Assembly: GCA_000934665.2 (NCBI GenBank)
Contig: JYFJ02000470.1
Coordinates: forward strand, 62,001-126,000
Direction of reading: 5' to 3'
From: Catajapyx aquilonaris
Lineage: Eukaryota
Length of the DNA: 64,000 bases
Positions 4,948-44,722 of this stretch are shown here, piece by piece (within the stretch, counting starts at the first letter, position 1; each line of letters starts with the position of its first letter). The position numbers and the translations under genes were made by a program. The notes beneath the pieces are model-generated. The model was not told where the DNA came from, did no database searches, and saw only the letters and a program-made list of their open reading frames with translations.

Positions 4948-7900
4948 ATGGCCTCACGTCACCTACCCGCTCTCATTCTGCTCAGATTCCTGCTGGTAAG
5001 TAGATCCAGCCAAGGACAACAACAGTGGTCATTGCCATAATGCACATTGGGCATGTTCACTGAATTCTTTTTTTCTCTCTGGAGCTGAAGAGAGGGTTTG
5101 CTGGTGGTGGGGGTGCCTGAAAACGGGTTTTCCTCGGGGCGTTGGCAAGCCTACTGCCAGCCAGTGGGGGATGGAGAGAGAGAGCGAGTGACAAATGTGG
5201 CCACGATCGATGTGGACCGTTTGTTACTTCACTTATTCTCCCCACCACCCAAACTCACTCACTTCATTCCCCTCCAACACTGGCGCCTCCATCTAACTCA
5301 ATCAGCTTTTCCCCATCTGAAAGCCTGAAGTCTGCGCCACCATAATATTATTCCTACCAGCAGAGTCGAAGAAAGGAAAAAGAAACGAAACATTTGTGGG
5401 GACTAACATTCCTCCGTTCCTTAGGGAGGGTCAAGGAACTTTAGGACCCATTTTCATTCCTCCCATCAGCAGAGAGTGGAGGCTGTTATTTTTACGCCAT
5501 CCTTTTACCTCATTCCGATAGTAATGCGGATGTTTTGAACGGGGAGACTTGTGAATGGAAATGCTCATTCCAGATCCTGCTATGCTGTGAGCGACATGTG
5601 GCGAAGAAGTACAAGCGACCGGACTTTTGCGAGGACCCTGAGGTTAGCCCGCAATATTGTGCTTCAAGCTGTCAAAAAAAAATGGCGAAACTTTTTTTTT
5701 GTTGACATGTTGAAATTACTCCAATGTATCTGCAGGAAACGGACAAACCGATGTCATTCCTATGGGCCCTGAAGCGTCAGCCGCCGTCGTACTTCTTCGG
5801 TACTATTCACGTCCCGTACACGCGGGTCTGGGATTTTGTACCGGACAACGTGAAGATGGCTTTCGAGGCCGCGGACAGTGTCTTCTTCGAGCTGGACCTG
5901 ACCCAACCTCGCACCATCGCGGCCCTGACCCGCTGCCAGCTTCTACCACCCGGAGAGAACCTGGCAGACGTTTTGCCTCGAGACATCTTCAGGAGGCTGA
6001 AGAGGCATCTGGAGTACGTCAAAGTGATGCTGCCGTCCTGGATGACGGCGGACCAAAGAGGAAGAGGCCTGTACGCCGATTACCTCTTCAACGCCATCAC
6101 CGGCAACTGGGAGAGGAAGAGGCCCGTCTGGGTCATGCTGATGGTCAACTCGCTGACCGAGAGCGACATCAAGTCTAGAGGTGTACCGGTGCTGGACCTG
6201 TACCTGGCCCAAAGGGCTGAAAAGGAGGGCAAACGGACAGGGGCTGTCGAAAAAGTGGATGAACAGTGTGTGCCACTCAATGGACTCAACTTTTCACAGG
6301 TCAGTCATACATATGTGCATTATCAGTCATGAATGTACAGCATTGCTCAACATAGTGGTTTGAACCCATTTTGCAGAGTATAGTCGTCGGGGATCCAAAT
6401 AGCATGGCGGCATGCCTTTGTGCTCCGGGAAACTCGTAAATTGCTGAGATAAAAGACCTGTTAGGCCGCGTTATTAACAAAGGAAACCGCTCCCTGTGTT
6501 TGTGTCATTTTGCGCTGATCAAAGCCGAACCGAGTAAATAGGGTTGAGAGATGTGCACCCCTCCTACTCTGCACTCTGTCAAGTCAAGAGGGTGCATTAA
6601 ATTAGACCGGTTCTTTATTTACCCAAAGACATTCTGACTCTCAATTGAAGGCCACATGGCGATGAACTTACAAGAAAATCAGACCTTGGCCGCAAATTGG
6701 ACGGCCTTCTTTGTACTCTTGTGACCAGAAAATATCGATGGGGCTGGGCATATCGTAAATCATGGACCCATTTCCGTCTAGTGTCCCCCCAGGGGATTAT
6801 TTGCCCAACCCTGCGCATTTGCATGGGGATGATAGGTAGATGGATGCGCTTCCGGGGCTGGGGGGGGCTGCACAAAGCCGGACTGTCCCCCCTTGTGTAC
6901 AATACAGCTCAGAGACCCATCAAACGGCCGCCGAAATGGATGGCAGGGGAAAACAATGGGACCAGGATAAGGATAATTACCAGATTCGCGCTTCCAACAT
7001 TATGGTGCAAGTGTGCATGAAATTGGCTTCTACTCGATCAATACCTGGCCAAAAAAATCGGACAATGCAAAATAGGGATCCTTTGAATGGACAAAAAGGC
7101 GCCGGTGCATGAATGAATAATGTGGTCTACTGCACGTGCTTGTGGGACCCAGTCTGGAATGAGACCACTGGCGCCTAAATTCTGAGCCAAAAAAAAATCG
7201 GGGTGCTCGTACTATTTTTTAAAGCACTATTTCTCCCGCACTTATCGACCAGGAGACAGATCGATCGTCAGGCGCCGCGATTATCGAGGGGAGAGCCTGG
7301 TGGGGAGGAAAACTCAGTCAAATGGGACACAATCCCCTCTGCTAAATCCCCTTGGAGCCAGAAGGATGGATGGGGACACACCGGAAGAGAACCCAAACGA
7401 AGGACACCATTCCTCAGCTTTTGTCAGCTGGATTGGATGGGAGGGGGGGGGGGNTGGGGGGGGGGGGGGGGAACCTAGGACATTGGCCTCTTGCATGCTC
7501 CCCCAAAAAACTGGTCGCCCACATAATGCTAATGACAGTGCTTAGGATGACAGCGGTGTCCATTTCTTATAGGAGCCAAATAGTGCTAATGAGCATTAGA
7601 AATGAATGCGGGGGATGTGGGTTATTCTCGGGGCATGACGTCTTCATTACCTTCATATCCAATTAGTGCGTCTAGGAATACCATCACGAAAGTGGAGGAT
7701 AAATCGCTTCTCAGCACGCACTGTTCGCACTTTTTCGCTTGCGTCTATATACTGGGAGGTCTGCTTTTTGGGGATGCCGACGTCGAAAAAACAAGCCAGT
7801 CGTACTTTATTAGACCGGTGGAGAAACTGCAGGTGACTTGCTGGTAAACCTGGCTTCATTTTTATGGGAGGACATTTATAAATGCGTTTCCAGGTCTCAG

Positions 7901-10510: not shown

Positions 10511-13371
10511 CTCTCCCATTTCTGCTGTATCCAAGACATATACAGACCTAAATGCCCAAGAACAATGCCAAGGCTCTACTCAGTGCCATATTAATGGCTG
10601 TCATTTGCTTCCACCACACTGGACTCTGAAGGACCACTGAGTGTGAATGTGGGTGCATGTGAGTGAAAATGTATGCATGCATGAGATGTCATATGTCTCT
10701 GAATCAGATCTACAGTGGCACTCGATATGTTTTTCCCTTCCAATGTGCTTCCTTTACGGTGACGCACATAACCAGAAATGGTGTCAACTGGTACAGTACA
10801 TGTGGATTTTTTTATTACAGGTTCGCCTACTTTGGGTAATTCGAGTTCAAACAATACTCTCTGTTCTGGTTTGCATACTCAGAATTCATACAAAATGTCT
10901 ACCTCTTGGGCTTGAAACGCTACTGTAGTGACCTCACAAGTCTGCGGTAGATGAAATTGACCAGATCAGTCCTGCCAATAATAATATAATATAGGAGACT
11001 CTTTGCTCTCTACTGTGCAGTACAAGTGGATTGTTTTGTCAAGTTGTCCAATGATTAGTGGACGAACGTTATAGAAGCAGTTGGTGTGTAGTTACCAACT
11101 AAAGAAGTGTCCCTCATTGTGGAAGGTGCAGTGTTGGCTGATAAAAATGAAATAATTTATTGCTTTACATATTATGACTGTGTCGATCTGGTGACATTGC
11201 TGTAACAAGAAAAAAAAAACATCGTTTGTTAAAACTGGTAAGTTGTGCAGTTTCATTTCTCAAAAAAAATATCCCACATGACAGAATTTTGGCCCTAATT
11301 CTACACTTCCCCATCATTTTCGCGTGCCTGGAAAAACTCGGGTTGCCTGGATCGCCTATTTTTGCTGCTCTTTATGTAATTAAGCAGCTACAAGAGCGAT
11401 CATGCGACCTACGGTTGTAATTAGCAGCAATTTATCTGATCGCGTGCCCGCCCAAGACCCGGTTACGCCAGCATTTGTAGCTTTGTTTTCGAGGATCCAG
11501 TTTCGTGCTTTAGCTCAGATTTTGTGGCCTAGGAATGACTATTTTCTGCCTTTTACGACTGCGGGTAAATGTGATTCGCCTCGAGCCCATAAGCATTACT
11601 TCGAGTGTAACACTAACCACTACAACTCATATCCTCATCCCCTGCATTCTGTTGTTGCTATCAGGTTTCTGCAAAAGGATTCGAAACCTTCGGTTACATG
11701 TAGACATGTAATTCGGACACTTCTATAGATAGCAGAGGTAAGCATTTGCCGATGTTTTTAAGGCATAAAATATGACTAGGTCATAAAAACGTGAGTTATA
11801 TGGAAAGGACCTGATTTATCTTCGCAGCTGCGGAAAATTAATACGTCGTACTTACAATACGTGTATCCTTCTTTCCGGCCTTTTCGAGGAATTCCTCAAG
11901 CATATAGTGAAGAATGAAACGTCATGTATCTTGCAATTGCGATAGTAGTCCCGGTACAGTATTTTCGATAAGACGGCTATGATGTCATAGCAAAGATCCG
12001 GACCTACGCTACCACATACACGCAATGATTTCAAGAGGTGATTAGACTGATTACTCACCTCGAGCGTAATAAAACTCGTGATATCGTGATCATCTCATTG
12101 AAAGTGGAGATCAGAAGCGGAGTTGCGATAGGAATAGCGGTACTTAGTTTCGCAATACAAAGTTTTTGTAACCCATTCATAAAGCAGAAATGTATGTCAA
12201 ATGCTACTCAGCATTTCAAAAGTAAAATTAATGACGTAAAATTTTCTCCTGTTTCCTTCAGGCAGGAAGCAGTATTTAGTCAGGACGTTAAGGGACTAAA
12301 CTGTGCATTTGGTGAAAAAAAGCATGAAATTTGGTGCGAATGTCCCTGAGGCCATTCTCTTCAAATTCAGATATGGCGCCACGCCCGTTTCTGCTCCGGA
12401 GGCCCGTAATTGCGAGTTGGCTACCTTTAAGCCACTGAAAAGTATTTTTCTGAGCGAACTATGCTTCTCAGGAGGATATGTGCCAAACAAAGGTTGTAGA
12501 GATATGTGTATTCTACAACAAGTATAAAGTACTTTTCCACGGACGTATTGCGTAATTAATTGGCCGATCTCTTCCGTCTGTGGTCTCCAATAATATTGCG
12601 CATGGCCAGGCGCAGAGAGACAGGCAAGCAGACAGTCACTCACACTATTACCGACTTACCCTATTACTACTATTAGATTATCTTTATGCAATTAGCGTTA
12701 AAATGATTTCATCGGTTTATAACCGGCACATATCCCTGCCAACGACAACTCACAGCAAGGCTTGAAATCTTTCTTCAACAATAGAACTTGAGCACGAATA
12801 ATTTTTAATTTACTGGAATAGACCTATGTAATAAAGCAAAAAAAAAAATCGCTAGTTACTTTCCACGTTAATGGTGATATATTGTCAGCAATAAATATAA
12901 AGGCTATATATAAGTTCTGTAGGGAATAAAAGTTGCGCGAATGCATTAGGAGGGAGCTTTTGTAAGATTTATTACCAAACTGGCGCAAAACTTTGTAAAC
13001 AGCATTTCCGCTGCATTTTATGCAGTCTCTTTCAGTCCCGGAAAGGATTTCGGTATACGAATTGATCACCATGCTGTTGCAGCAGTTCAAATCTATCATA
13101 AACCTGTCGCCAAAAAAAAGGGGGGGGGGGGAGGGGGGAAGCGAAAAAAAAGTTGGCATTGGAGGCACTTTTCGACACGAACAAAATGTGCTAATTTTTT
13201 GATCACTGTGTTTAAACTAGGTTCCTCCTTCAACCTCCCGACAGTATTGCTGATCATCAGAGACAAGTTCATTCAAGTCCTCAATTTCCGTGAAATCCAC
13301 AGCGACGTTTCAATGTCCCACTTCAATTCCTTTCATGAAGATGATGAAGATGATGGGATCTTCTCTGGGAT

Positions 13372-13382
13372 CATCATCATCA

Positions 13383-13428
<46 letters not shown>
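13372..13428. repeat. Compound (ATC)n(GTC)n microsatellite upstream of UGCG exon 1A
   Basis: Directly visible trinucleotide tracts. Confidence 0.95.
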
Positions 13429-13815
13429 AACTGAATATTCCCGCCTTCTGCCGGCCGGCCAGTCGTTCTTCTCCTTCCCACCAGATGTCTCGAGTGTGGA
13501 GTTCCGCCGCTTGGTCCGTCCCGTGACGTCACCCGATCATTTTCTCGTTGTCCGCCAAATGGAGTGGTCGCCCTGCTAGGTCCGTCCGGTCCTCCTCACA
13601 CACGACGGGAGACGAGGGGAGACAGTCTGGTTGAGAGAGAGAGAGAGAGCAGGCGCCTCTTGGTGTGTGTGTGTGGACAGTTTGGTGGCAGTGTGTGTGG
13701 CCCTGGCGGGGAAGGGTCTGGTGCACGGGGCAGAGAAGGAGTCGGCGGCTGTGGCGGCGGCGGCGGCAGAAGGAGCGGAGGAGGAGGTGGAGGAGAGGGA
13801 GGAGGAGGGGCAAAG

Positions 13816-16800
13816 ATGGCGCTCCTCATCTACACCCTCTACGGGTTCGCGATCTTCTTCTTCACCTTCTGGTCCGGGATGTGGGTCGTCCATCTAGCCG
13901 CTCTCTTCTCTGGGTGAGTGTCCCCCACGTATGGGATGAGAAGATGCAGGGGGAAATCCAGGTGTGACACTGCCGGGAGGGGAAAACCGTGTGAGGGTGA
14001 CTCACGCCTTGTGTCTTGGGATCATGTGCGTTTGGTTCATGCAGGAAAGTATGATCCAAAGTAATGGCAGTGTGAAGCGTCCCACTTAATGTCTACCGCA
14101 GCTGGTGTCACATATGTATAAATCAGTGAAGTACAGTACAACAAAACCCATCTGTTGTTCCGTTCCAAATAAATATCCACGGGAAGGTTCAGCTAAATGC
14201 GACTCGTTCGTGGAACATCGGGCATAGGGACCAACCAAAGGTTTTTAATAGGCAAGGTGTATCCTGAAACATTTATAAACAAGTTTAACTGTATTATTAT
14301 TGGCTCAATTCCATCCTTGCCAGATGCAAACTGCAACCATTTTCACATCCACACATGAGGATCTTGTTATACATCTGTAGCGGTATCTAATCAATGTATC
14401 TAAACAAAAACGGAAGACAAATTTGAATTTAACCTCTCGGGTACAACCTTTGGGCACATTGAAAAGATTTGCGCTGGTGTCAGTGATGTCAAAATTCAGG
14501 AGAGATTATTCTCCCACAGGTTGATGGGATTTCTTGTACTGAACAGTTCTGATTGTTGTGGGTAAATGTTAATAATAATTAACGTCTGCCGAACAACAGT
14601 TGTGCTTACTCCTCACTGGAACGCATCTCCACCTGAATGAAACCTTAGTAAATATTACTGAGTACAACATGAAGCGTACTGTCTGTTTTTTAACAAATGA
14701 TCTAAAGAGAAAGAGTGATGTCTTGATAATGGTCATATCAGTCCAGTGATAATCCAAGCTTTATGTTGACCTACTGGCTATTATTTGACAAGAATGGTTT
14801 AAATTAGTATTAAACATTTGTAGGTACTACTGCGTATTATTGTTACTTTCAATCATATGTTATCCTCAGTTCACCAAGAGCTGTTGTTGCAAGTAGCTTT
14901 TGCAAATTTTTGTGATTATCAGAAATGGGAGTCAGAATACGTCTTTTGCCTCCAAATGCTGTTGCTGTTGGGTATTATTTCCATGTCATTTCAACCAGAT
15001 ATGAAAACCTGATAATATTATCTCACTTTGTACATTTAAAAAGGGTCATACAAGACAGTTGCAAAATATTTGCACAACGTGTTGAGAGTGAAACAGTACA
15101 TTTTGATAATGTAAGTACAGGGGCCCCTTTTAAATCTGGCAATAAAAATTCCACAATCTGCATAATCTAATTTTCTGCGGGACCTTCACTTTCATGGTTG
15201 GTGGTGCTAATAATATAATCATTGTCTCACACCACAACCAAACTCTGGAAAGTAGAAGTCATTAGGGATGTTACTATTGGAGCTAATTTTGGAGGTAATG
15301 CCCCAAGGATGTGTGCTGGAGAATATCTTATTATCTTAATAAAATAAACTTTATGCAAGAAGACAAAGCTACCAAGTAAGGCAGGGAATCCATTGGGCAA
15401 CCAAAGGGAGGAACTGCCTGAAGAGACCTGAAATGTCATGCCATATGGATTTTCTGTCATATTACAATCCCTATTCCCGCATTTTCTGGCGTGGACATCA
15501 CCACCCATTCAGACTGTGAGAAAAAAACTCAGTTGGCTCTGCAAACCGTCAACAAATTCTTTCATGCTTTCATAAATACTTGCCTTTGGTGACATAAGGT
15601 TCTTTAGAATACTACCCTCTGTGCTTATTTACCCTGTGGTTGTGGCAGTGACTTTCAAGTTAATATTTACACAATTTTTTAGGTCATTCCGGAGCAGCTT
15701 GATGACTGATTTGAAACTATATTCTCCTACATTAAGATATGGAGGATGTGGTTTCAAGTCCCAGACAATAGCATAGTCGACTATTAATATACATGCAATT
15801 ATTGTAAAGCCTACCCGAAAGGCTTGTGGCATAAAGGAATTCGATAAACAAAACTGTTAACATACTACAGTTGAATCCGTATATAACAGTCGCGGCTATA
15901 ACAGAATTTCGGTTATACCATACTCTAAAGGCCGGTCCCTCCATAGTCTGGTATATCCAAAAGTCTGTTATAGCTGAGGCTGTTATATACGGATTCAACT
16001 GCAGTATGTTATAATAACCCTTTGGAACATTATGGTCACTGCTTCAATTCATACCAAAGCCACACCGTGTCTTCTATAAGCAGCTGGTGTCTGTTGGCAA
16101 TGATGAGATGGAAGACGACATTATTGTGAATTCATCTGATGATGAGCAGTTGTACAGTATAATGACAATTGAATACTGAGAAATATGGCCTGTGTATTTG
16201 GCTATAACAGACCTTGGTTATAACAGACTGATTTCCACGGTCCCTTGAAGTCTGTTATATCCGGATTCAACTGTATTATCAAAGCAATTATTGGGCGTGC
16301 TGGGCATTGGAGGGATCTAGAAGTGTACATAATCCCAACAAACGACCATACCAGAAGAAAGTGATAAGCGAGAGATTAATATTCAATGAACCAGATGCCA
16401 CATCCATCAGTTCGTGACCTATGGGATGACATATGACTCATGGCATGCCATGATAAAAGCCAGAGGCAATCAGCAGTCATACGGTTTGTCCAGTTCACTT
16501 TAGGCTACGAGGACACATCCATGATTTATGGCTCACGTAACTCACGAATTATGCTGAAATATATGCTTTGAATCGCGTGAAACTTATAGTAGGACCGTAG
16601 TTGTCGTGTCACACAAGTGGCACCGCAAGTTATGGCGGAATCTTCTGGAAAATGACCTTCGAAGGGGGGCGAGAAATGTCCTTAGCCAGAGGAATGTGGG
16701 TACTAATGAGCTGATCAAAAGCAAGGCGTCAGAGATATTTGCATGTCTTGGAGCCCATCTAATACGGCACCACTTGCCCATCCCCGGATGCCAGATCGTA

Positions 16801-18336
16801 GTCACAAGGGACGTCAACTTAGAAGAAAGTGAACATATCATATGACGCCCCCCACTAAAATTCAGGATATTGAACCTTATTTGTAAAGGTAGAGAAAGTT
16901 TCATATACAGTGCAGGTTACATTGTAATTCTGTAGGACAAGCATTTGGGTGCAACCCTCCCAATCCAATATTGGATAAGTCAACTGGATGAAATAGTAAT
17001 CGCATTGCTTTAGCCTGCCCTCAAAACGAGGCTATGAAATGTTTAGCAAGCGAATCCGAAATTCTGAATGGACGCGTGCGGAAGGCATGTTTAGAGAAGG
17101 CAAGACCTTGGCCCCGTCGGCACGGAATGAGGGCATCAACTGTATTGAACTGGGGGAATCAAAGGGAGCAATCCCTGTATCGGCCTGTATGCTGTGCTGG
17201 GCTCAAGACAAAAAAATCGAACCCAGGACAATCGATGTTGCCATGGAGGAAAGACCCTCCTCACCCTTCACGTGTACACAGCACCCGGTAATCGCCTCTA
17301 AAAAACCACATGACAACCGCACCTAATTCTAAACAGCACCCTTGGGACATGCATCACGAAAAGACAAGGCACACGTGCTTTTAAATTTCCGGCCCCCACT
17401 CTGCAGGCGCTCACTAGATGTTCCTAGAAATAGTTGCGCTCTCTGCGGATCTTTTGGGGATCAAGGTTGCCCTCCCCATGTTGCATGCCGCTGTTAATTA
17501 CCTTTTGTTTGCAACCAACCCGCACTGTCGGCCATGACCAACTTTTTTTTTCTTCTTTTTTATCGTCAATTTCAGCGTCTTTTTTTTTTGCGCCGTCTTA
17601 GTGCTGCGGGTCACAGGCAATCGACATATCAATAAGTGATGTGACGGATAAATTGCTGGGGGGCATTAGGTATAGTTACGGGAATAATGGGAAATAAATA
17701 GAAAAATTCGGGCGCTGATAGGCTGAAGTAAGATGTTACAATATACTCAATGAGATGCCTGAAATATTTATTTGTACGGTATTGCGTACCTGTGCAAACT
17801 TCGTCGCCTTTAGTGCCGATATTATTATGGATTAGTATTGATAACAGTTTAAAATATTAGATTATACAGTATGCATGTGCATAACCTAGTGTTTTGTATT
17901 TTCTGAATGAGATGCCTGCTGCAGTATTTATGGTAACTTATCAAGTGTAGGCGTCGTATTTTCGGTTACTGCTCGATCGGACTTGTTTACGTGGCTTTTG
18001 ACCTCGTCTTTTTTGTATGTGTTACGATGGGATGAATTTTTTGGGGGGCGATCCTCTCTTCAGACTCGGTGTTTTTTTTTCCGGGTGCAGTGTAGCGTTA
18101 GAGTGCGATAAGATGTCAGTGTGATGAACCGTTGGGAAATGTGGAAAACAACTTTTCATGCGGGAAATGCACTTTACTGGTCCTGCGAATTCACACCTCT
18201 GGGGCCAGACTCTACATAATTCAGCACTGTATTTTCCAAGTTATCTACTGTACATTCTGCCTTGCCTCGAACTGGTACGAAATATTGGCGGTAACCGATG
18301 CCTGGGATGATGATGACGACGACGACGACGACGACA

Positions 18337-18399
<63 letters not shown>

Positions 18400-21300
18400 C
18401 ATTAATACTACTAATAATGGTGGGTTGAGACTGAGGACTCGCAATATGGGTTATGTCGATTACTATCTGTCGTAATCATACTGTACTGTTTCGTTTTGTA
18501 ATGGGTTACGAGTCTAGGCACTATCAATAAATTATTCATCGTCTAGGTTGTGTGCACGACAAAACCTCTAGTACCTTGTGCAATGTACTGGCATATTTAT
18601 TTACCTACAATTCCCATATGCTGCCTGATGCGCATTGTTTCCAGCACGTGACACACAGTATACGTGGCCACCACTGCATCGACGTAAAGCAAAGAACCAG
18701 GAATCAATTTTTTTTTGTTTCGAAGCCTCTTTGTGTTACCGAAATTGTTGGCAACACCATGCTCACACGGTTATTCTGGTGCATAAATTCTTAGCTGTAC
18801 TACAGTGACGCAACTTGCACAGAGAAAGTGCTCTTCAATCTCAGTTCTTATTTGAATTTGTAATGCATTCGAGGCAGAAGCCTCGTCGACGGCTTGGCTT
18901 TACGTTGTCTACCTTGGGTAATTTTTTATTCTGAACCCAATGCTCGAGCAGATCGAAGTGGGGGGGGGGGGGGGGGGGNNGGGGGGGGGGGCTTACCTGG
19001 CTCGATTTCCATACAGGCTAACATCTCCTCCCTAAGAAAAGGGGGGGAAAAGGTTGCGTGTTTGGATTCCTGGATTTCCCACTGAGTTGTTTCACTCAAC
19101 AAATTATGCAGGTGGAATGGGGCTTTAATTTTATTGTCTGTCCGTCCGCCTCATCGTTAATTCATTATAAACGATTCCCTTTTCATTAGGTGCACATTGG
19201 TATATACGTATGGCAAAAAAATATGAGAACAGTGATGCAGTGATGAAATTCCATAGTGTCAGTGGGCGGGATGGAACTTTGCCAATCTCCCTAGCTCGTC
19301 CTTCTTTGATTGCGAAATGTCATCTGACAGCTTGTCTGCTTTTCCTCCCCGATAATTTGTCTGAAAACAAATCGGGACATTTTTGACAGGCGATAATACG
19401 GGCCTTGGGGCGCGTTTTTAAAATAGTTTCCGGCCGGGACTATGGCCTCGTGGGAATATAAATGTATCCACATATTAGAACAAAAGCGCAGCACCTCCCA
19501 TACATGGGAGGTGCTGCGCTTGTTATCTCTCATCTGGGAAGAGAACTATTTGCGGCCTGTTAGAGCGTAGGTGCGACCTCCTGTTCGTTATCTACATCTA
19601 CACCTACCTGAGGGGCTATATTCTTCACATCGGGTCTAACGCATGCCAATTAGCAGCATACCACTTTTGTGGAGAGCTTTTTAGGGAGATTTTCTGGGGC
19701 AATGCATTGTCTATCACAAGTGGTGCAACTAGGGTGAGAAGTAAACCGTGTCACTAGATGATACGTGCCTGAAGATTCAAGGTGATTAGTTGGGAAGAAA
19801 TATGCGCACGTTAATTGGCAAAGACAATTTGGCAGTCACTCGGTGCTTATTTCTAGAGTTGGCGAGATGGATATGCAAAAAGGGTCTATGGCCTTTCCAA
19901 ACTGTGGAACGCGACTAAATCTGGTGATTGTATATAGATAGGGCGGATCGTAAATTCGGTGTATGTAGCTTGCAACATTGGTGTTGTGAAACTCGTAAGG
20001 GTATCATAGGCGGCGAGATTAATAGTTTTATCGCTGTCGGATTTAGAACCACGTTAAATGTAGTATACGATAATAACTTATCACGGGTTAACTCGTGACC
20101 TTCATGCAGAAGGTATTGCGTGACGATTGACGGTTAAGGTTACCAGAGGAGTCTCAAATGGGTACAGATTACCACAACACCCAATAGGATACATTGAAAG
20201 TTCATTGATGGCTATTCAACCTCTGTGAATTATGATAATGGTCAGCTGATCAAGTAGTTTGTATAGTACAGTACCAGCAATGGCTTTGTACATTTTTTTT
20301 TCTTCCTTTTGTTTGAGTCAGATGTTCGATATGCTGTGGTTCCGATAATAGCAGTGTAGTATGTATATTTTGGTTATCAATGACTAATCGTTGCGATGCA
20401 CATGGTCGCCCATATTTACTGACTTGAAACGAAGTAAAAACCTTGATGTTTGGAAAAGAAAATTGAAGAAAAATGTGATCGTGAGGGACGGGGCCCGTAA
20501 GTCGGTTAGTATTTATTTACTACTCGTTTCCGGTTCATGCGTTTCTGACTGTCGAGCGTGCTTTATCATTACGCTCAATTATTTACGCACAGCTGTCCTA
20601 ACCGTTTATTAGAAGCCTGAAAGACGTCTCAGTGTAGGGCACCAGTAGTCAATAATGTTTCGGCGATAACCTACCTATTTCGACTGATATAACAAAAATG
20701 TAGGTTGTCCGTTAAATTTGATTCATGTTGTGGACATACCATTAGACCTAAACAGTGTATGGTACTGCACTCTGCGATTCAGAAATTAATATGAGAAGTG
20801 GAGGTCGTAGGAAGGGCACTTTGTGACCCTTGCATGTCACCGCGAATCTATTTATTGATGTGGAAAAATTAAGCAAAAGCTCCAGTTTTGTATGAATGAA
20901 TTAGTACAGTAGTTCAGCGTGCACGACAGCTGCATTGTTTAGGTAGCAGCCAGGTTTTTCTCAAAAATCAATTAACGAATAAGTGTGTCCAGTCAGTAAT
21001 AAATCCGAAAAATTCGAGGCATGTTATCCAATTATTGGATTTAATTCGTGTGAGAAGGACAGTTGCGCATCATTAAGTCATCCGTACATGCCCAGCATTA
21101 TGAATGCGTCTCTGGCCGTACATTTTAAAACACATCGTCAGTCTAGTGTAATTGCCAAACTACACCAAGGACAGAGACACAAAAGTGACTCATTATGGTC
21201 TAACAATGCGTGCATTCATGCGGATTAAATGGACCTTTTTGGAGATTCGGCTGTGTGTATACGTAAGCAGTGGGGTGGGAGACTGAGAGTACGTGAACCT

Positions 21301-24300
21301 CAGATGACGCGAGACTATTGACCCTAGACAAATGGATGCCGCCCCAATGTCCGCGTTATACTACTGCACTTTCAGGCTTGGGGTCAATATCGGAACGGGG
21401 TGGGATTACATAGAGGGGGGGATGGGGGTTGCCAGATATTAATTTTGTATCGGTTCAGTCCAGCACGCTTGGGAGTTTGAAAAATATTGTGGGGATCGAT
21501 ATGCGTCATAATGAGCTGCTAATGTAATGACAGGGTAAGGTGTTGGATAGACGATGGCCTTTTTCTGTGAAGGCCATGCAGGCTTTTGGAGCCATATCGA
21601 TCCAGCTAAACCGTATTATGGTCCGACCTTTCTGCAATGGCCTCTCTCTCTCCCTCATACATTGGCGAAAATGCACAGTACCTGACACCGCCAATTCGCG
21701 AAATGATGGGACCGATGCATGCTGGCATCCCCCAGTCGATAATATATTCGCGGGTTTGTGTGGCCTTGGCACGGTTACCTAACGATGCACTGGAGAATCT
21801 CGGATGTGCTTGATAGAGCAGGTAATGGATTGGTCAGGTAGTTGTCAACTGTTGCTCTCATTTAGGAAAGAGTGTCATGTGCAGGCGCGTCATCAAGAGT
21901 GATGCAACATGCACTTCACACCCGGGGGAGGTCTGCAATCAGGTTGACAACATTCGTGCTTTCCAATCATGACTCATTGCAGGAGACAGCAATGTAATGT
22001 AGGTATCATCTGGGTGGGATGCACGGGCTCGTTAAAACTTCCGGATGTTGAGGATGATTGGGATGCAGTTGGGAAACTCACAGGTTTCCATAGGGGGTTT
22101 CATAATGAGTTGGACGAACTTCTGGGCTGCTATTGGATCATTTTGTGGGGACATATTCTGAGCAGCATTTTCAACGAAGCAACTGGCTTTCGACACAAGA
22201 TGTAAAAGATTATTTAATTATTTGCTTATCTGATTGAAAATGCCCTGTACTGTACTTGTATCCGTAGCATTACAGTGAGACACTGAATAAAGGGCAAAGA
22301 ACATAATTATTGTGTACACATACAATGTATTATGAAGTGTTATTAAAATATATCCTGGCAGATATGCCTCCCTCCACGAGGCCTTACATTTTAAAATATA
22401 AAATGTATGCTCTCTTGAAGTTGTTAAACATCATCATCATCATCATCATCACGGCGTTTCCCAAAGATATGGGGTTGCCAGCGAATATTAAGGAGGTCCT
22501 TAATATCCTCATATGACCAAATATGTATACAAAAAAAAAAATCTGAAGCCTGGTCAGGTACTTGCAGATAATGGGGGAGGGGAGGGCTACAACATATTGC
22601 CGAATGAACAGGCTTGTTAAACATGACAAACACAATTGGCCAACAAGTGGTCAGGTTACGCCCTGACATGATATATGGTGGTATTTGCCAGAATATGTGG
22701 TTTTGGAGTGGTGAGAATGACCACATATGGTAAAAAGCCCAGAGGACACTTAGGGAGTGGGCAGGGTGAGGCCCTCTTACAAAATTCACATGTGTGTGAC
22801 ATCACTGACATCATCAGTGAGCTGGACTGGATAGCCCCATTGGGCATTCCCGTGCTGGCCATGCTGCTGTTAAACATGGTGGTCGTGATACTGGCTGGAG
22901 TGATCATCGGGTTTTGGTGTTTTGTTTGGATGGTTCATTTCATGGCGCTGTGCTACGGGTGTGTGAATGAGAGGTGTTGTCGGAGTGTCATTTTTTTGGA
23001 CAGTTAGTACATTTTCCCTGTTGTTTCATTTCAGAAAGTGGAAGCTGCATAACAAGACGGTGCAGACACCCAGAGAGACGCCTTATCCTGGAGTTTCCAT
23101 AATCAAGCCATTGGTTGGTGTGGACCAGTACTTGTTTAGTAACATAGAAACATTTTTCACAATGACGTACCCTTTGGTGAGTAATTCTTATTGGTTCAGG
23201 AGCTTGGGTGCAATTACATTGTAAATGAGATTGCTGACTTTCAACTTTACAACCATGCACAAAAAACAAAACAACAAACGCTAACCTTGTGAACAATCAT
23301 GTCAGTTTTAGTTTGCTTAATTAGTTACGTAAAATATTGGGAAACATGCAGAAATATAAGATTTTGCTTTCATTCTAATGTTTCTCAGTAATCATTATGC
23401 AAACAAAAACGGGTGTTCACAATTGCAGCCAAGCTCCTACAGTTATTTTGTATTACAAATGCGCAGTAAAGCAAAAATATACATTTGCATTTTCAGTACG
23501 AGCTTCTATTTTGCATTCATGATGAAAGTGATCCTTCCATTATGATAGTCAAGCAGTTGATGGAGAAATATCCTCACGTTGATGCCAAAGTTTTTGTAGG
23601 TAAGTGGTAATAGATGCGGTTGTGTTGTAAGGTGGGGTTTTTGATAGTAAATGATCCAAGTAACACAGTATGTTTTTTTTCTTTCAGGTGGAGAGAAAGT
23701 GGGAGTGAATCCTAAGATTAACAACATGCAACCTGGGTATGCAGCTGGAAAGTATGAACTGCTGATGATATCAGACAGTGGGATTCGAAGTAAGCTGTCA
23801 CCATATATTTAGGATATGTCACTTAGATTTATCATGCTCCTGTGATCAAAACCAGTGACGAATCAAAGCAGCAATCTGTTTCATGCTACTACATCATGAC
23901 AATGACAGGTGCACATGTGGCACATCAACTGCTGCATTCAAACAAAAATTGTCTCCCTGTAGCAGGGGGAAAATTGTTGCTTTTGGTTTAGAATATGCGT
24001 ATGCAGAATGGAATTTTGGTTTGAATGGAACAGATGATCAGCCACATGTGTCACTGGAGTTGTCATGCTATAGTAGGGAAGGGATCACTGATTTTGAAAG
24101 GGCCTCAAACAATGTACTTTACCACACTCGCATGCAACAAATTTTTTAAAAATATTAATATCGTAAGCGTCCTAAGCTTGATTATAGCTTCAGGTCATCT
24201 TTCTAGATCTGAACTTGAAATATGGTGCGGAAGTGTTAAGCGTAATATTAATTTTATAGGCCTGGTGAAGAAACTTCAGTGTTGATATTGGGACATTTGT

Positions 24301-26250
24301 ACCCAAGATGTGATGCCAGACTTAGAAATTTTCATTTTGCTGAGCTTAAGAATATCAAAATAAAATAGCACCTTCCAGGAACCTATATTTTATCATGCTT
24401 TCTCAATGTCACCCATCTGAAATTCATCAAAATACTCCCTGCATTATGGAATTCTGTAGAAGTCGACAAGAAGTAGAAGTACCATAGTAGTAACTTACAG
24501 CATACTGTAATAACCTTCAGAAGTTAAGTGTAAAAGGAAAGTGTGGGTTGAGTGAAACTCGGGAGTGAGAAATTATGTTCTCTACAAGAAGTTACCATTT
24601 TTGCGATAGATTCCAAAGATTCTCGCTAATTTGACTTTTCTCTCCAAATGTGGCTGTCAAAGTACTTGCTCATAATGAAAAATAAATTTGCAGCTCTACG
24701 TTATGCAACAATTGAAATTGCTCATTCTTATTTTGCCCTTGCAGTGAAGGAAGACACCCTGCTGGATATGGTGAACCACATGCGTGACGATGTGGGACTG
24801 GTCCACCAGATACCCTTCACATGTGATCGAGAAGGGTTTGCAGCCATCCTGGAGAAGATCTACTTTGGAACAGCTCATGCTCGCATCTACCTGGCAGCAG
24901 ACTGTGCACGGGTCAACTGTGTTACAGGCATGTCCTCTTTGATGAGGCGAAAACTGTTGGATGAAGTTGGGGGGCTCAAGGCATTTGCGTGCTACCTGGC
25001 GGAGGACTTCTTCATGGCGAAGGCAGTCACAGACCAAGGGTGGCGGATCTCCATCAGCAGCCAGCCTGCCTGGCAGAACGCTGGCCTCCCAGACGTGTCC
25101 TATCTGCAGTCACGCATCCAGAGATGGGCCAAGCTCAGGATAGCCATGGTTCCTTACACCATACTTTTTGAGCCACTCAGTGAGTGTGTGCTGCTGGGAG
25201 GATGTACTGCGTGGGCAGTCAGATTGCTGTTCGGGTGGGATCCCATCGTGTTCTATTTGGTGCATGTGCTTCTCTGGTTTCTCCTCGACTGGCTCCTGCT
25301 CTCCGTTCTACAGGTTGGTGTGGTTTAACTGTACCTTATCCAAGTCCGATTTCATGTGTGTGAAATCATAAACCTGTCTTGGGTGGAATGCCGGGCACCA
25401 CTCAGTAAATAGTTTTCATGAAAGCAAGAATAGACAGGTCTGACCGTGGGTGTGACAGATTCTACTCCCAGCAGGAACCAACGAAGATGTATGGCCAGGC
25501 TACTGTGGCCCTGTGGGGCAATCCATAAATTTAATGGGCTCTTTCCAGGGTGTGTAGGATGTTAGTGTGTATTACCAGAGGGATGAAATTAATCTTGTGG
25601 TATTTACAATTGGATGTGAGGGTGTTGCGTAATTTCTCAGGACCTAATCACGTTGCCTGTTTTGGTGCAATGTGAGCAGAAGGTATTCTAAGGGCACATG
25701 AGAAGGAGGAAATTTTATGTACGGAGCATATCTATTGGCCAGTAAACATACTTTCATGTAGTTGAAACTGTGACTTATGAGATTCAATACTTATTACCTT
25801 TGGAAAAAGATCTAGATTAATTTTTGTACTTAATTACATTACCTTGTACAGTACATAATTCAGCTGCTGGATATAACTTGTTGCATTATTTTTTTAGTGA
25901 AATTGAGGACTGGTATGGATGTCAAGAGTTTAGTTCAGGGTCACATTTCTCATTTACAAGCCATGTGTTATGTTACGTATGAACTTAAATTTCAAGTCCC
26001 AGCTTTTCTGTTTGCCACTTGATAATTTGCCCTTATGTCGTGCACTAAATGCCACTTCTTTCTTTTCCAGAATGGATCAGTGCCATTCAACAAGTTTGAG
26101 TTTGTGGTGGGATGGCTGTTCCGTGAGACCATGGCGCCATACTTGTTCTTACATGCACTGTGTACACCTGCGATCAGGTGGAGGACAGGTACTTACTACT
26201 TGCGTTGGGGAGGGCATGTGGAGGAAGTGCAACCAAAAGTCAAGCTGTGA
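13816..26250 (+). CDS. UGCG: Ceramide glucosyltransferase, isoform A (exons 13816-13913, 23035-23176, 23497-23599, 23688-23789, 24745-25313, 26071-26250)
   Basis: N-terminal TM anchor [19 protein letters not shown], then [70 protein letters not shown]21/UGCG family motifs with in-phase GT-AG introns. Confidence 0.95.
15868..16273. mobile_element. Tc1/pogo (Tigger-like) MITE
   Basis: TA|CAGTTGAATCCGTATATAACAG ... CTGTTATATCCGGATTCAACTG|TA; internal TATAACAG repeats; an extra right TIR ends at 16001. Confidence 0.85.
18307..18398. repeat. Compound (GAT)n(GAC)n(AAT)n microsatellite
   Basis: Directly visible. Confidence 0.95.
22861..22958 (+). CDS. UGCG: Alternative first coding exon 1B of ceramide glucosyltransferase (start could lie further upstream in the same open frame, e.g. 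22675 or 22717, or at 22876)
   Basis: [33 protein letters not shown] is homologous to exon 1A, ends in the same phase (GG|gtgtgt) and can splice over a 76-nt intron to the acceptor at 23034. Confidence 0.8.
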
Positions 26251-26976
26251 TGTGCTACTCTACAAAGAGTTGGTAGGAACACAAGGAAAGAGTGAAGCTG
26301 CAAGTGCGCGGGTCCGTCGGCTCCAAGTCGGGAACACAAGTGCTGGATAGTGCAGACCTGAAACTTTCGAGTGAATGCATCATCTCTCCTTCCCCCTCAA
26401 CCCCCCAGTTCATCCTTCATATTTTTTTTATTGATTTTGTTTGTTTTCACCTTGTCTGTGATGCTAATCATTGCCGTTGGGAATATTTCCTTTTCCAACT
26501 CAAGAAACAATCGGTAGCTGTTTACTACCAGACTGATCACACCAAAAAGTTAAGAACAAAGGGCATATATGTTGCGAGTCACTTGGAAGAAGAGCTTTAA
26601 GAGGATTAAAGGTAAAGAAAAAAGAAAAAGAAGAAAAAATAAAGAGGAGAAAGGGTTTGTGAACCATTCTCATTGTCTTGCAGACTGAATAAAGAAGAAC
26701 TTGTGTATCTGTGTGTACTGTCAATGAGTTCAGTGTGACTGAAACCTTCAACGCATAATACTCCATACATTAAAATGGCTTTCTCCGACCATGCTACTTG
26801 CTCTCCATATTCTAAGGACGTCTTTCTTGTTTGCGACTGATGGAGTATTTTCAGTTCATCCTGCAGGTGTAAAGCAGTAAGGAAAAATCATCAAAATGTA
26901 CAAAATTCTAAATGGATACAGTAATATCACAAGTACATATTCGTATGAACCAGCAAAGTCTTGGTGACAAAAAAAA

Positions 26977-30705: not shown

Positions 30706-33700
30706 ATGGCGGCCGACGGCGAAGATCAGGTCATCTCGGATCAAGAAAAGGTATCGGGGGAATGGGCACTGGGGAGGGTGACCCGGTGTGGGTGGATGCG
30801 GGGTCGGGATGGGAAGGGTCGAGGGTCATGCCCAATGGTGAGGTGGAGTGGGATGGAACGATAGGGAGGAGAGGGGTCAGATTGGAAATGGGCGTGAAGA
30901 AAAAAAAAAGAAAAAAAGAGAGGGAGGAGCCGCCCATATTTGCTGTAAGGTGGGACTGCAGACGTCATGCTTTTGAGGTTTTGGGAGATATGTACGGCTC
31001 GTGGTCGAGCACACTGGGAGGAAGATGGGACCCGGTGACAGGCGAAGAGTCACGCTGAACTCAGAGGGCAGCGACACCACTTTGGGTTCAAGCTCTTAAG
31101 TTGGGCAGCCGTAAAGGTGTAAAAGTTTGACTATGGCTTTAGGCAGTCAGGAGAGTACCGACATTGGAATGCAGGTCAGCTCATGAGTTTGACAGTACTG
31201 GCACGTAAGCCATGCACTTGATCATGATCATGGTGTAATGACATTCAGTGGGAAGAAACATATTCAATGGAAAAAGTACCAGTTTTGTTATGCACTTTAA
31301 TATGGTTTAAAAACAATGTAAAAGAAGTTCGTTGATGTATTGTCATATGCTACTGGTGGAAGTGAACTGTCGTGAAAGAGTTTAATTTTAAAAAGTTGGA
31401 TTTTTGGTGCATAGTGTTACCTTCATGGAGCCAGATCAGTTTGTCGTGTGTGCAGTATTATCCATCGCCCCCTGTCAGTGTCGCTGCTCCAGAGTATTTC
31501 AGGATTAGTCCCTCAGACTCCCATTGGCACTGTCAGTGGCACAGAGCCAACGGAGGTCTGAAGAAATGCTCTTGAAGCAGTTTGTTCGAAAATACCATTT
31601 AAAACATTCCATGGACTTCCATTGCACTTCAGGTTTGATGAGTCATGGAATTGGGTTTTTCCATCCTGTCACCCACTCTGCTAATGATTTTATCCCTTTG
31701 CGCAGGTCCGGATTGTGTCAGACTTCATCTTGCACTCTCCGCCAGGGGAATTCAATGAAGTTTTCAATGGTAAGTAATAGCAGTATCACGATATGGGTTG
31801 GATCTAATGGCACTGCATCATATTTTCATTGGAAACTGGATGTGGACAAGAGTGGTAATGACAAGGTGTTACATGCCATGTCAAAGTATTCATGTCCTTA
31901 ATTATACTGCCCATCTTGGGTTCTTCATGAAACAGAAGGAGTGGGCATTTAGGGATTAATAATTATTGCAACTCCCATTAGTAATAATAGTCACTCACAC
32001 TATAAACTGTGATGTCACAAATTCAGTGACTGACAAGATTTTTACGATGTAGTAGAGTAACTTGAAATGATATTTATTTTGTCCACAGATGTTCGGGTAT
32101 TGCTGAACAATGATAACCTTTTGAAAGATGGAGCATCTGGGTGAGTACCAATTCTGCCGACATAGGCAGCCACATACACTTGCACTCGTCCGGTCCTGGG
32201 ACACCCATTTACGTTTTAATCAGCCATGTGATCTGTTATAGCGCATTTGCCCAGTACAACAAGGACCAGCTGACCCCTGCGCGAGTTGAGGGGACTGAGC
32301 AGCAGGCACTCATCACTGAGCACAATGACCTGGGAGGGAGCCGATTCTTCGACCCCAGGTCCAAGCAGAGCTTCCGATATGACCACCTGAGGAAAGAAGC
32401 AAGCGACTACCAAGTGTGTCTCTGATTCCAATTTGGAGCGGGGCTATGCACATGCTTATTAAATGCTTTTCTTTCATGTGTCACAGAAAGTTGCTGCATT
32501 AGAAAAGGATAGTGGTGTCATAAGACTTGTACTTGCATAGTAGAAATTGTGAGTAGTTACTAATGACATTGGGACATCAGTATCATTCTCTTGTTGCAGC
32601 AACTTTTTGTTGTACTCCTGCTATCATTCTTATCTCTGTGGTTCACCTTTTTTGCTATGGTGGAGTGAGTCATGACTGCTTGCAGTGCATTGCTATTAGG
32701 ATACATTCATACTTGCATAAAGAAAATTTAGCAAACTTTAACAACTCAAAAGTTATGGTAGTTTTTTTTTTTTACATTACTGACTTTTACTGTGTCCAGC
32801 ACTAATTCTAATTAAAACTAAAAACTGACTGGTTTTTGATAAGTATGGACAGTTTGAAAATTGAGTATTAGTATTGTTGATTTACTGCTGCATTATTCTG
32901 CACTGCAGTCTTACCACTGCAAATACCTGTGCTTTAATTACTAATGTCTGGCAATTATTATCTACCAGAATTTTCTTGCAGCTTCTTTGGTGGCAGGTAC
33001 TAAAATAACACTTGGGTGACATGGTGAAGGTGATTGTGGCTTGACATGCGCATTATTTATTATGTTTCTGCTGACCCCACATATATTTATTTGGGAAGTC
33101 ATGTGAAGTTGGTGAGGAAGTTTGTCTTGATTTGATATATTAGGCGTTATTAGGAGTATGCTCTGGAACTGATGTTGATTAGGAGAGCAGATGTGCGAGT
33201 TTTCTTTGGGAGAATTGATGTTTTATGACAAGACATATAAGCTGCCCTTCTTCACAACATAATTTTGTTTCTTATTGGAACATAAAAATCCAACAAAATC
33301 ACAGCATATTTGATGATTTGTTTAGACTAAATTAGTTGCCTGGAGTAATTGAGTCATGTAAGGTACTGTAGATGAGTGACACTGGAGGGGTACTACATTT
33401 TGCATGCAAAATTCATTGTGCCAAGGGAAGTTTTGGCAGGTGGAGGAGTGAATCTGCTGCTGCAGGGGATTCTTACATCTCTGTTAAACGTGTGCAAGGG
33501 ATTTTCAAGCTACTATTATTTGTAACCTTCCAGCCATGGGATTGTGACCACAAAGCAGAGCCATGGAGATCCGCCTTGGAGGCAGAGTTTGTGTCCTACA
33601 CTACTGACCACTACAAACACGGGGCATGCAGTGTTTTTGCACACACCCAGGGGGCAAGTGTAACACTAATTGCCTGCATTGAGGACCACCAATTCCAACC

Positions 33701-35029
33701 AAAGAACTACTGGTAAGTTTTTGGATTGGCTAATCCTATAACTGCTGACCTTTTTTATTTTGCCAATTACAGGAATGGACGATGGAGGTCTCAATGGTCC
33801 ATCACATTCACACCATCGGAAACAGCAGAGCTCAGGGGTATTCTCAAAGTGCAGGTGCACTACTATGAGGATGGAAATGTTCAACTTGTGAGCTCAAAAG
33901 AAGTTAAGGAGAGCCTGACCATATCGGTAAGGCTAGTTGATTGCTGTCACTTGGGTAAAATTCTGAAATTTGTGGAAGGCATTGCACTAACAAATCCCTC
34001 CCCAAGAATATGTGCAAATACTCGTGATTTTTTTTTTACGTAAGTGATGATTATAGGAGAGAAATTAATGCAGGAAGAGGTAATATGTTGCATAAGCCGG
34101 TACCACAGTGTCTCGCTTTATTTTAAAATGATTTTGGTGTATTGATATATGTTGTGTCACCCTCAATCAATTTTATTTCAATTTATTGAATTCAATTAAT
34201 TCAATTTTATGTCAGCTCCTGGTAGCTCAGTGGTTAGAGCACCCGATTCGAAATGGTAATACAACACCCTCAATCAAGCACCTCAAACTGAAAACGTCTT
34301 TAGACTTGTCCAAGTGACTTAGAAGCTCTATAGTGCTGACGCCCCAAGCAAAAACTACGTATGTGCAAAAACCATGTATGTTCAGCTAAGCATGACCACT
34401 GAAATCCCCTTTATGCTGCCTACGTAATGGTACGTAATGGTACAAACCTTGTTTCTCTACGAGTCTCCATTGCAACGTAAAACCATGTATGCATATCCTT
34501 TTCAACAGAAAGTGAAAACTTCAAATGCGCTTATCTCGAAATGATAAAAACCACACATACTGGGTTTTTGCTTGGGGCGTCAGAGTGTAATAAGGGCATG
34601 ATGACAGTACTTCGGCTTTATAATTAGACCTTATCATGTGACACTGCACTAGTTAGTGATTTTATTGACTTATTGTACATGGACGTGGGTGCAACCACAG
34701 TTTATTGGTAATAATGCTAACTACAAATAGAACAGGAGTTGTGTTAAAATAGGCTTCTTTTTATTTTACATTTATATGATGCATTTATATTTGTTTCGAA
34801 ACAATTCCTTTTTATTACGTTACAGAATGAGCAACAAATGGCAAAGGACTTTGTGAGGCTGGTTGAAGAGGCGGAAAACAACTATCAGACAGCGATCTCA
34901 GAGAACTACCAGACCATGTCTGACACCACCTTCAAAGCCCTGCGACGTCAGTTACCGGTCACCCGGACCAAAATAGACTGGAACAAGATTGTTTCCTACA
35001 GCATCGGCAAGGAACTCAAGAACCAATGA
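30706..35029 (+). CDS. cpa: F-actin capping protein subunit alpha (exons 30706-30750, 31706-31769, 32089-32140, 32242-32413, 33534-33712, 33773-33926, 34826-35029)
   Basis: [86 protein letters not shown]. Confidence 0.97.
34215..34254 (+). pseudogene. 5' half of a tRNA-like sequence (truncated SINE head or tRNA fragment) in a cpa intron
   Basis: GCTCCTGG TA GCTC AGTGGTTA GAGC A CCCGA TTCGAAA T: intact A box/D-arm and 5' anticodon arm; no T-arm, B box or 3' acceptor strand follows. Confidence 0.65.
34336..34583. mobile_element. MITE with 20-bp TIRs and apparent 4-bp TSD
   Basis: AGTG|CTGACGCCCCAAGCAAAAAC ... GTTTTTGCTTGGGGCGTCAG|AGTG; internal AAAACCATGTATG repeats. Confidence 0.85.
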
Positions 35030-42900: not shown

Positions 42901-44722
42901 GCCTCCAGTCCATGGTTCCTGCCATTTTCAAGCAACTTCTGACCTTCAGTAAATATGCTTGCCAAGCACCAATGTATGGAGCATTAGAAACGAAGGTGTC
43001 ACCACAGGTTAGTGATTTTGTCTAACTGAATTTTTTACTGCAGGTTTAAGTAAACTCTAATGGATCTCCTTTCAGGCTGACTGGGTTACTCTGAGCTATG
43101 TCCCATTTGGAGAGAAGGCACTGAGCATGGTGGTGTTCCTGTACCAAAAGACTGCCAGCGATCCAAATGTCCTTCAGGCTTACATATTAGAGAACATCAT
43201 CAAGGTACTTTTCTCAGCACGACATTTGGAGTGTTACTTCACTGCTGTCACTTGTTTCTAGACCTTGAGAGTGCCACTAAGCCTGAAGTACAGCTGTTTG
43301 TCTCAGACAACATGGAAACTTGCCATTGAAAGTCTCTTAAAAGTGCTCCAAGTGGGGCTCCCTCTGTTTAGGCAGCAGCCGACACAGTTTAGAGGAGTCT
43401 GGTCTGAACTGTACCTCACTCTAGATGAGTTTCTCTTTTCCAAAAGGTACTGTATATTGCCTTTATGCTAAGCATGAAATCATTTTTGATATCGATGTCT
43501 TTTGCAGCATACCACCAAACACACAAACACCAGAAGAGAGCCAAGCAGATGAAGCTGTGGATTGCCAAGTGATAGAACTTTTGAGGGAAGATGTGTTGCC
43601 TTACTCAGCTACTCTTCCCAAGGAGTTTGTGCTCAAAGTAATGGTCTTGCTCAACAAGGGTTCCATCCATTCAGCCACTTCTACCATGCCATCAGGTGAG
43701 TTACAAGATCCTAATTGACCTCATAGGACTCAAGATGACGATGTCCCTCACTAGAGGGCGTTGGCGCATGCGGGCTATGGTTGATTGATTGATTGATTTA
43801 GTGATGGTTTTTTGGCACAACAGCAGGCTATGGACCTGGGGGAAGCTCTTGTCCAGTGAGTCATGATACAGTCTGGTTCCAGACTAGTTTAATAAATGGG
43901 TAGCTCCGTACTTATTGTAGTATTGGACCACGACCTGAGTTCCTTGCAGGGTAGGAGGGATGACCTGAGGAGGTCAACAACATTGAGATTGGAAATGGTT
44001 ATTTTCTACCATGAAAAATTGTGCTTAGTAAATAGTGACAAACATTTCTTAAGCTTCATTAAGATTTCATCTCCAGCCGATGGTGAGAACACCAAATTAC
44101 GAGAAGACTTCGCCAAGACTTGCTTTGAAACCCTTCTCCAATTTGCCTTGTGCAACCAAATGAGTGCTGGTGAGGCCTCCTTGATCAACTGTGGTGATGA
44201 GCTTGAGAAGGAAGAAGCAGGGTCCCTTTCTAACAAGCTAGCTGTGACCTCTCTATTGCAAAGATTCCAAGAAGTCTTGCAGAAGTATGTGGAGGATGAG
44301 AAACTGAGTGGAAAATGTCCCCTACCAAGGCACAGGTTGTCTGAAATTTCATTTGTGCTTAAGGCCATAGCAACATTGATTTCATCTCTCAAGAAAGCGC
44401 CTGAAAAAGGTAAATATTCTTGCACACTTGAGAATATTGTAGCTCAATGTAATTCATGTAGTTTCTTGGTGTCATTTAAAATGGACAATGCTGATATCAT
44501 TTAAGTACTTGAGCAGAAATATTTAAATATGTAGTGACTAATTATTTTCATATCTTTTTCTCAGTGGACCTGACGACATGGGAGCAGTTGATCAGCCTGT
44601 ACCCACACTTGGTGAACTGCACCACAGCCAATGCTGCTCAAGTGAATCGCTCCCTGAGGGAGGTTCTTCACGAGTACAAGGATCTTTTACAACCGCCAAA
44701 GTCTTGCAGCAACGGAGTTTGA
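36941..44722 (+). CDS. MON2: Protein MON2 homolog (about 20 coding exons; first 36941-37075, last 44565-44722)
   Basis: [173 protein letters not shown] introns. Confidence 0.97.
43781..43990 (-). mobile_element. Possible 3' remnant of a non-LTR retroelement in a MON2 intron
   Basis: (GATT)4 tract followed by TAGTGATGGTTTTTTGGCACAACAG, resembling the reverse of an (AATC)n-tailed LINE end; boundaries uncertain. Confidence 0.3.

Follow-up and report, generated by a model that had tools for sequence, protein, structure and literature searches.

The 64,000-nucleotide (nt) stretch of the Catajapyx aquilonaris genome analysed here (assembly GCA_000934665.2, contig JYFJ02000470.1, positions 62,001 to 126,000, forward strand; hereafter the window) carries a gene of the arthropod ceramide glucosyltransferase type, whose first coding exon, encoding the N-terminal membrane helix, is present in two copies. 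The upstream copy (exon 1A) is spliced to exon 2 in RNA-like data. The downstream copy (exon 1B) lies within intron 1 and is an ancient, intact homologue of exon 1A. On balance, and with somewhat more confidence than an even chance would warrant, exon 1B is interpreted as an alternative first coding exon that would replace the first membrane helix in its luminal half while leaving the remainder of the enzyme unchanged.

The ceramide glucosyltransferase gene

Judged by its sequence, the locus is a single-copy UDP-glucose:ceramide glucosyltransferase gene of family GT21 and of arthropod type, with a predicted rather than assayed enzyme activity. It comprises six coding exons that encode 397 amino acids. 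The exons are collinear with three matched proteins in tblastn alignments (54-83% identical per exon), and no other glucosyltransferase exon fragments were found by tblastn elsewhere in the 64-kb window. The 232-codon open frame of exon 5 gave 316 matches in the protein library, the best 120 of which were all arthropod ceramide glucosyltransferases or unnamed contigs. The top identity was only 65%, which indicates that the library holds no close relative of the source species. The same frame matched PF13506 (GT21) with E = 1.1e-40 (139.4 bits, against a cut-off of 21.7) and contains RIQRWAKLR opposite the insect RLTRWAKLR, a form of the Q/RxxRW-type motif that is typical of processive-type GT2-like transferases. 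A family member from Hetaerina americana (by source name; P0003) matched solved ceramide glucosyltransferase chains with E = 2.8e-137. In ceramide glucosyltransferase, a hydrophobic signal-anchor helix at the N-terminus precedes the catalytic domain; the peptides of exons 1A and 1B both matched the family N-terminal profile described below and have mean hydropathies of 1.59 and 2.16, respectively.

The exon structure was established from a spliced 1576-nt contig of the public run X1 that has 0 differences to the window. The kind of this run is not on record, and it was taken as RNA-like because exons were covered and introns were not. The contig fixes the introns at 13914-23034, 23177-23496, 23600-23687, 23790-24744 and 25314-26070, all of them GT..AG, and it contains the joint 13913>23035 with 44 nt on the exon 1A side and a word depth of 31. 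This is the exon 1A junction that a preliminary description of the same DNA had proposed. The gene is laid out as follows.

13686..13815, + strand: 5' untranslated stretch of exon 1A, to the limit of the RNA-derived contigs (a 185-nt contig is unbroken over 13686-13870, with 0 differences)
13816..13913, + strand: coding part of exon 1A, canonical membrane helix of the N-terminus, 33 residues with the split Gly codon counted in (profile, insect identity, spliced contig)
13914..23034, + strand: intron 1 of the exon 1A transcript, 9121 nt, which holds exon 1B (skipped GT..AG in the spliced contig)
22861..22958, + strand: exon 1B, diverged duplicate of exon 1 and candidate alternative first coding exon (profile, ATG, phase and donor, all read from the sequence)
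22959..23034, + strand: 76-nt interval, the would-be intron of exon 1B, which also carries the exon 2 acceptor with its pyrimidine tract (sequence reading)
23035..23176, + strand: exon 2, common to both forms (tblastn, spliced contig, joined frame)
23497..23599, + strand: exon 3 (tblastn, spliced contig, joined frame)
23688..23789, + strand: exon 4 (tblastn, spliced contig, joined frame)
24745..25313, + strand: exon 5, bulk of the GT21 catalytic domain, donor cag/GTTGGT (tblastn, contig, PF13506)
26071..26604, + strand: exon 6, with the stop at 26248-26250 and then 3' untranslated region at least to 26604 (contig over 26068-26604)

Exons 1A and 1B are homologous

Exon 1A runs from an ATG at 13816 to the donor tgg/GTGAGT after 13913, and exon 1B from an ATG at 22861 to the donor cgg/GTGTGT after 22958. 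Each is 98 nt long and ends in phase 2, so that exon 2 (acceptor ttcag/AAAGTGG at 23035) completes the split Gly codon. When either exon was joined to exons 2-6 by script, one 397-codon open frame with a single terminal stop resulted, and the two predicted 397-amino-acid products are the same beyond residue 33. An ungapped alignment of the two peptides contains 12/33 identities, 4/17 in the first half and 8/16 in the second. Sequence reading and the joined frames thus bear out the coordinates, length and phase that the preliminary description had given for both exons, and its gapless 12/33 identity was reproduced. The separation of about 9 kb that it had reported corresponds to 9045 nt between the two ATG codons. 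It had also placed a 62-codon open frame upstream of exon 1B; the frame is in fact open for 63 codons, from 22672 after a TGA, and is unremarkable because several frames of about 100 codons occur in intron 1 at this base composition.

The two peptides differ in composition much as had been described, exon 1A being rich in aromatic residues and exon 1B aliphatic with two Cys. Residue counts gave ten aromatic residues and no Cys for 1A, and six aromatic residues, 18 Ile/Leu/Val/Met and 2 Cys for 1B. The difference is pronounced in the N-terminal half of the helix, where 1A has six aromatic residues and 1B none, the mean residue volume is 153 in 1A and 138 in 1B, and the mean hydropathy is 1.92 and 2.81. 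The second half of the helix is conserved, adjoins the catalytic domain and is kept in 1B, so that an exchange would affect mainly the N-terminal half. The enzyme has an N-out topology, which makes the N-terminal half of the first helix luminal.

Homology was assessed with a profile built from 87 distinct arthropod N-termini, all from other species, which was searched against the whole window translated in six frames (2112 frames). Exon 1A scored 53.7 bits (E = 1.4e-15) and exon 1B 28.5 bits (E = 9.7e-8), and the next match reached 7.8 bits (E = 0.29). The exon 1B match extends end to end over profile positions 1-33: its ATG coincides with the first profile position, and its donor directly follows the last. 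The boundary between exons 1 and 2 falls at the residue that ends the family profile. None of 5000 residue shuffles of 1B reached 27.7 bits, the maximum being 12.8. A chance resemblance is ruled out by the E-value and the shuffles, and on this sequence evidence exons 1A and 1B are true homologues that arose by an old duplication. Exon 1A is up to 25/33 identical to insect N-termini and 1B only 6-16/33, which identifies 1A, at the sequence level, as the canonical arthropod exon and 1B as a divergent copy. Searches with single sequences against solved chains were uninformative: phmmer with the peptide of 1A or of 1B alone found no glucosyltransferase chain.

Exon 1B is old and was long constrained

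The nucleotide sequences of the two exons are identical at 45/98 positions; for codon positions 1, 2 and 3 the matches number 14, 19 and 10 of 32. Synonymous change is saturated (pS 0.82) and the non-synonymous difference is 0.48 (pN), figures that rest on only 32 codons and in which the synonymous difference is inflated by the unequal GC content at third codon positions of the copies (0.875 vs 0.69). Five positions are at least 94% conserved in the 87 family members (A12, W19, W23, H26 and A29), and all five are kept in 1B; when an insect member was aligned to a solved ceramide glucosyltransferase chain, A12, W23, H26 and A29 were matched there too. What 1B has lost is the aromatic YTLYG stretch of the first half, which is moderately conserved; here 1B carries, at positions 6, 9 and 10, residues seen in 0/87 members.

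Neutral decay was simulated from exon 1A. At the observed identity, 0/5000 copies scored at least 27.7 bits, and at 30% change only 35/5000 still combined the ATG and an open frame with the GT and a sufficient score. The simulations and the kept positions together imply that for most of its history 1B was evolving as a coding sequence. The profile matches, the saturated synonymous sites and both kinds of simulation uphold the old exon duplication that the preliminary description had proposed. Selection appears to have kept 1B, for most of its history, as an exon bearing a start codon, the right phase and a donor, with past and present constraint inseparable.

Splicing signals, transcripts and promoter context

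The shortest proven intron of the gene is 88 nt long, and the would-be intron of exon 1B measures 76 nt. The donor of exon 5, cag/GTTGGT (25311-25321), is non-consensus at +3 and +4 and is used in the spliced contig. Because this 88-nt intron and this GTTGGT donor are in use, a 76-nt intron with a GTGTGT donor lies within the range of the gene. The sequence from 22793 to the start of exon 1B is free of ATG, and the short out-of-frame reading from an ATG at 22790 stops, by eye, before the exon 1B start. Going by these signals, exon 1B retains every sequence feature needed for an alternative first coding exon.

The region around exon 1A (13316-14016) is CpG-island-like, with a GC content of 0.60 and an observed/expected CpG ratio (CpG o/e) of 0.90. 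The gene body (23035-26247) has a CpG o/e of 0.40, which together with the 0.90 at exon 1A fits germline gene-body methylation. Within intron 1, 27 open reading frames of at least 70 amino acids were scanned, one of them carrying exon 1B, and none had a Pfam match; comparison of the intron with the rest of the window found no shared repeats. An initiator-like word, TCAGT, noticed by eye at 22814-22818 was dismissed, as such a 5-mer is expected by chance. A bacterial-type promoter scan near exon 1B, a model inapplicable to an animal, found no more sites than in shuffled sequence. At 16183-16270 in the intron, several X1 contigs match at 90-95% and then diverge, which has the appearance of a transcribed dispersed repeat.

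A model for the two first exons

The favoured interpretation, an alternative first coding exon, can be put as follows. The first coding exon, with its N-terminal membrane helix, was duplicated long ago. The distal copy, transcribed in this model from the CpG-island-like promoter at exon 1A, is spliced over the 9121-nt intron to give the canonical form. Transcription of the proximal copy would begin at a start inside intron 1 near exon 1B, and the transcript would be spliced over the 76-nt mini-intron. The resulting protein would carry an aliphatic and smaller luminal-side half in place of the bulky aromatic one, with A12, W19, W23, H26 and A29 kept. Transmembrane composition influences Golgi sorting, and the change in the luminal half could alter membrane-thickness preference, sorting or access to lipid.

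The alternative-promoter isoforms of the preliminary description are supported in part: exon 1A is spliced as proposed and the sequence features of exon 1B are intact, whereas no exon 1B transcript was seen and the composition at exon 1B is not promoter-like. Several observations weigh against use of 1B. In the X1 contigs exon 1B is uncovered and the joint 22958>23035 is missing, although contigs cannot show absence. Taking these contigs and two protein libraries together, no transcript, junction or protein containing 1B was found. The surroundings of 1B have a GC content of 0.44 and a CpG o/e of 0.39, like a methylated gene body and unlike a promoter, and its donor is less consensus-like than that of 1A. 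A protein library search for longer proteins with the 1B frame found no candidate sharing three words, and phmmer with the 32-residue 1B peptide against 1.84 billion representatives returned 0 matches at E <= 0.001; neither blank carries much weight, given a short query and the absence of close relatives of this species from the libraries. The limits noted above on the synonymous figures and on separating past from present constraint count on the same side.

The main rival, appreciably less probable than present use though still a serious contender, is that exon 1B is a relic. It would have been a long-used alternative first exon, or exon 1 of a tandemly duplicated gene in which the upstream partner has since lost exons 2-6, and would have been silenced so recently that disabling mutations are still absent. 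The missing RNA support for 1B, set against a word depth of 31 for the joint of 1A to exon 2, is in keeping with this, as are the lack of promoter-like composition, the single-copy loci of other invertebrates, and the fact that a 1B-type N-terminus was found in none of the 173 family proteins fetched (best 16/33). What a relic has to accommodate is how much is intact: start codon, 32 sense codons, exact phase, GT donor and all five near-invariant residues. Given the divergence from 1A, the silent period must be short relative to the constrained period. The missing promoter-like composition would also be accounted for if 1B were an internal ATG-bearing exon, in which a non-coding leader from the 1A promoter or another upstream start is spliced to an acceptor before the 1B ATG and replaces the coding part of 1A. 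An AG preceded by a CTGAC-like branch motif is present 40 nt ahead of the ATG, at about 22818-22820, and no ATG intervenes, but its pyrimidine tract is poor, the contig of the 1A leader (13686-13870) runs on into 1A coding sequence and shows no alternative donor, and the X1 contigs contain no such junction. This arrangement is considered improbable.

More improbable again is an assembly artefact, in which exon 1B would derive from a paralogue or another haplotype and have been joined in error 76 nt before exon 2. The Ns of the window lie at 7454 and 18979-18980, away from 1B, a nucleotide identity of 46% means that 1B cannot be an allele of 1A, and the window contains no further glucosyltransferase exon fragments. 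A false join would, moreover, have to fall within 76 nt and yet leave an exactly in-phase donor. As for a hydrophobic intronic frame that merely resembles the helix, intron 1 does contain several open frames of about 100 codons, but the gap between the profile E-value of 9.7e-8 and the next match at 0.29, together with the failure of all 5000 composition-matched shuffles to reach the score, refutes this explanation. Among these readings the alternative first coding exon is judged the most likely.

Relatives and comparable systems

A scan of metagenome contigs identified 17 loci encoding relatives that are 44-74% identical. Exon 1 is in view in five genomic loci of other invertebrates (L003, L004, L006, L009 and L015), each with one profile match; in L004 this holds across the whole 5.6-kb first intron. 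It follows that the exon pair is not a general feature of the gene, which is a further point against the proposed isoforms. The preliminary description had suggested related genomes as a check on conservation of both exons: the five loci, all distant, are single-copy, none of the relatives is close, and no orthologue of exon 1B was found. Four of these loci (L003, L004, L006 and L009, environmental contigs) have a first exon of a different, WIGYW- or GWSFVW-type, with the exon 1/2 boundary at the same residue. Relative to arthropod UGCG / GlcT-1 (CAZy GT21; for example P0003, and the Chrysoperla carnea cluster of P0001; solved chains include 26qf_A), the present gene is collinear and has the same exon 1/2 boundary, and it adds a diverged first coding exon 76 nt upstream of exon 2.

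One spider protein model (P0166; hypothetical protein JTE90_013897, Oedothorax gibbosus by source) contains two tandem copies of the helix, at residues 1-33 and 41-73, before the exon 2 sequence. The copies score 34.0 and 52.6 bits, and this is the only such model among the 173 family proteins fetched. Like the present gene, it has one canonical and one divergent helix copy upstream of the exon 2 sequence; unlike in the present gene, both copies are in one protein and the divergent copy is upstream. The model is probably a prediction artefact in which a gene predictor fused two alternative first exons. Its divergent copy matches 1B at 14/33 positions and is no closer to it than canonical forms are, which suggests that the duplication was probably independent. 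Residues 1-40 of the model found no candidate in the protein library, a result that weighs little given the short query and the unsampled lineage. Isoforms of horseshoe crab and tick named in RefSeq (P0123, P0125, P0129 and P0152) start in short alternative first exons that abut the exon 2 sequence, which indicates that starts inside intron 1 occur in the gene family. These first exons lack a membrane helix and would give anchor-less forms or serve as non-coding leaders. The internal starts, and the spider model as a parallel case, count in favour of the use of exon 1B.

Tandem exon duplication giving rise to alternative or mutually exclusive exons is a general phenomenon with known criteria. 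Like other tandem-duplicated pairs, exons 1A and 1B are homologous, equal in length and phase, associated with the same intron and each joinable to exon 2. They differ from internal exon pairs in that each has its own ATG, so that the choice would be made by transcription start, and in that only 1A is seen in RNA. The UGT1A and clustered-protocadherin genes join variable first exons to constant exons, and 1A and 1B are likewise duplicated first coding exons on one shared constant set. Here, however, the copies number just two, what varies is a 33-residue membrane helix and not a whole domain, and a separate exon 1B promoter is only putative.

Genomic neighbourhood

Pfam matches indicate about ten neighbouring genes in the 64 kb.

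2130-3221, + strand: OCRE/G-patch RNA-binding protein
5706-6329, + strand: TraB/TIKI-type protein
33372-33713, + strand: F-actin capping alpha
37634-44501, + strand: MON2
49003-49344, + strand: PA28 proteasome activator
51374-51874, + strand: BORCS6
57281-58015, + strand: LSM protein
59371-59712, - strand: F-box protein
61175-61897, - strand: PRP18
62142-62705, - strand: PRP4-like piece

The single Ns at 7454 and 18979-18980 lie inside G runs. Long simple repeats occur near the Ns, namely a Ser-coding run before 13430 and an Asp/Asn-coding run at about 18300-18400.

Significance

The kind of arrangement suggested by these sequences is already well known, both as a tandem exon duplicate used as an alternative exon and as variable first exons on a constant body; what is new is its occurrence in this gene, where the second form is putative. 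A full-text search, with subscription journals outside its scope, found no paper that describes duplicated or alternative first exons for this enzyme, in agreement with the preliminary description, which had known of no earlier report. A silent exon 1B would be a further preserved duplicate and nothing more.

Most glycosphingolipids are made through a single entry point, glucosylceramide synthase, whose position in the Golgi decides which ceramide pool is used. It is conceivable, although doubtful, that two long-maintained forms share everything but the luminal half of the helix and that promoter choice sends the same catalytic domain to membranes of other thickness or order, or to other ceramide pools, the spider model suggesting that such pairs may have arisen repeatedly in arthropods. 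Should exon 1B be in use, an isoform pair differing only in the membrane helix would offer a clean test of the role of that helix in sorting, partner choice and substrate access. The conserved half that 1A and 1B have in common also marks the helix residues that are indispensable to the enzyme (A12, W19, W23, H26 and A29), which can be read against the solved structures.

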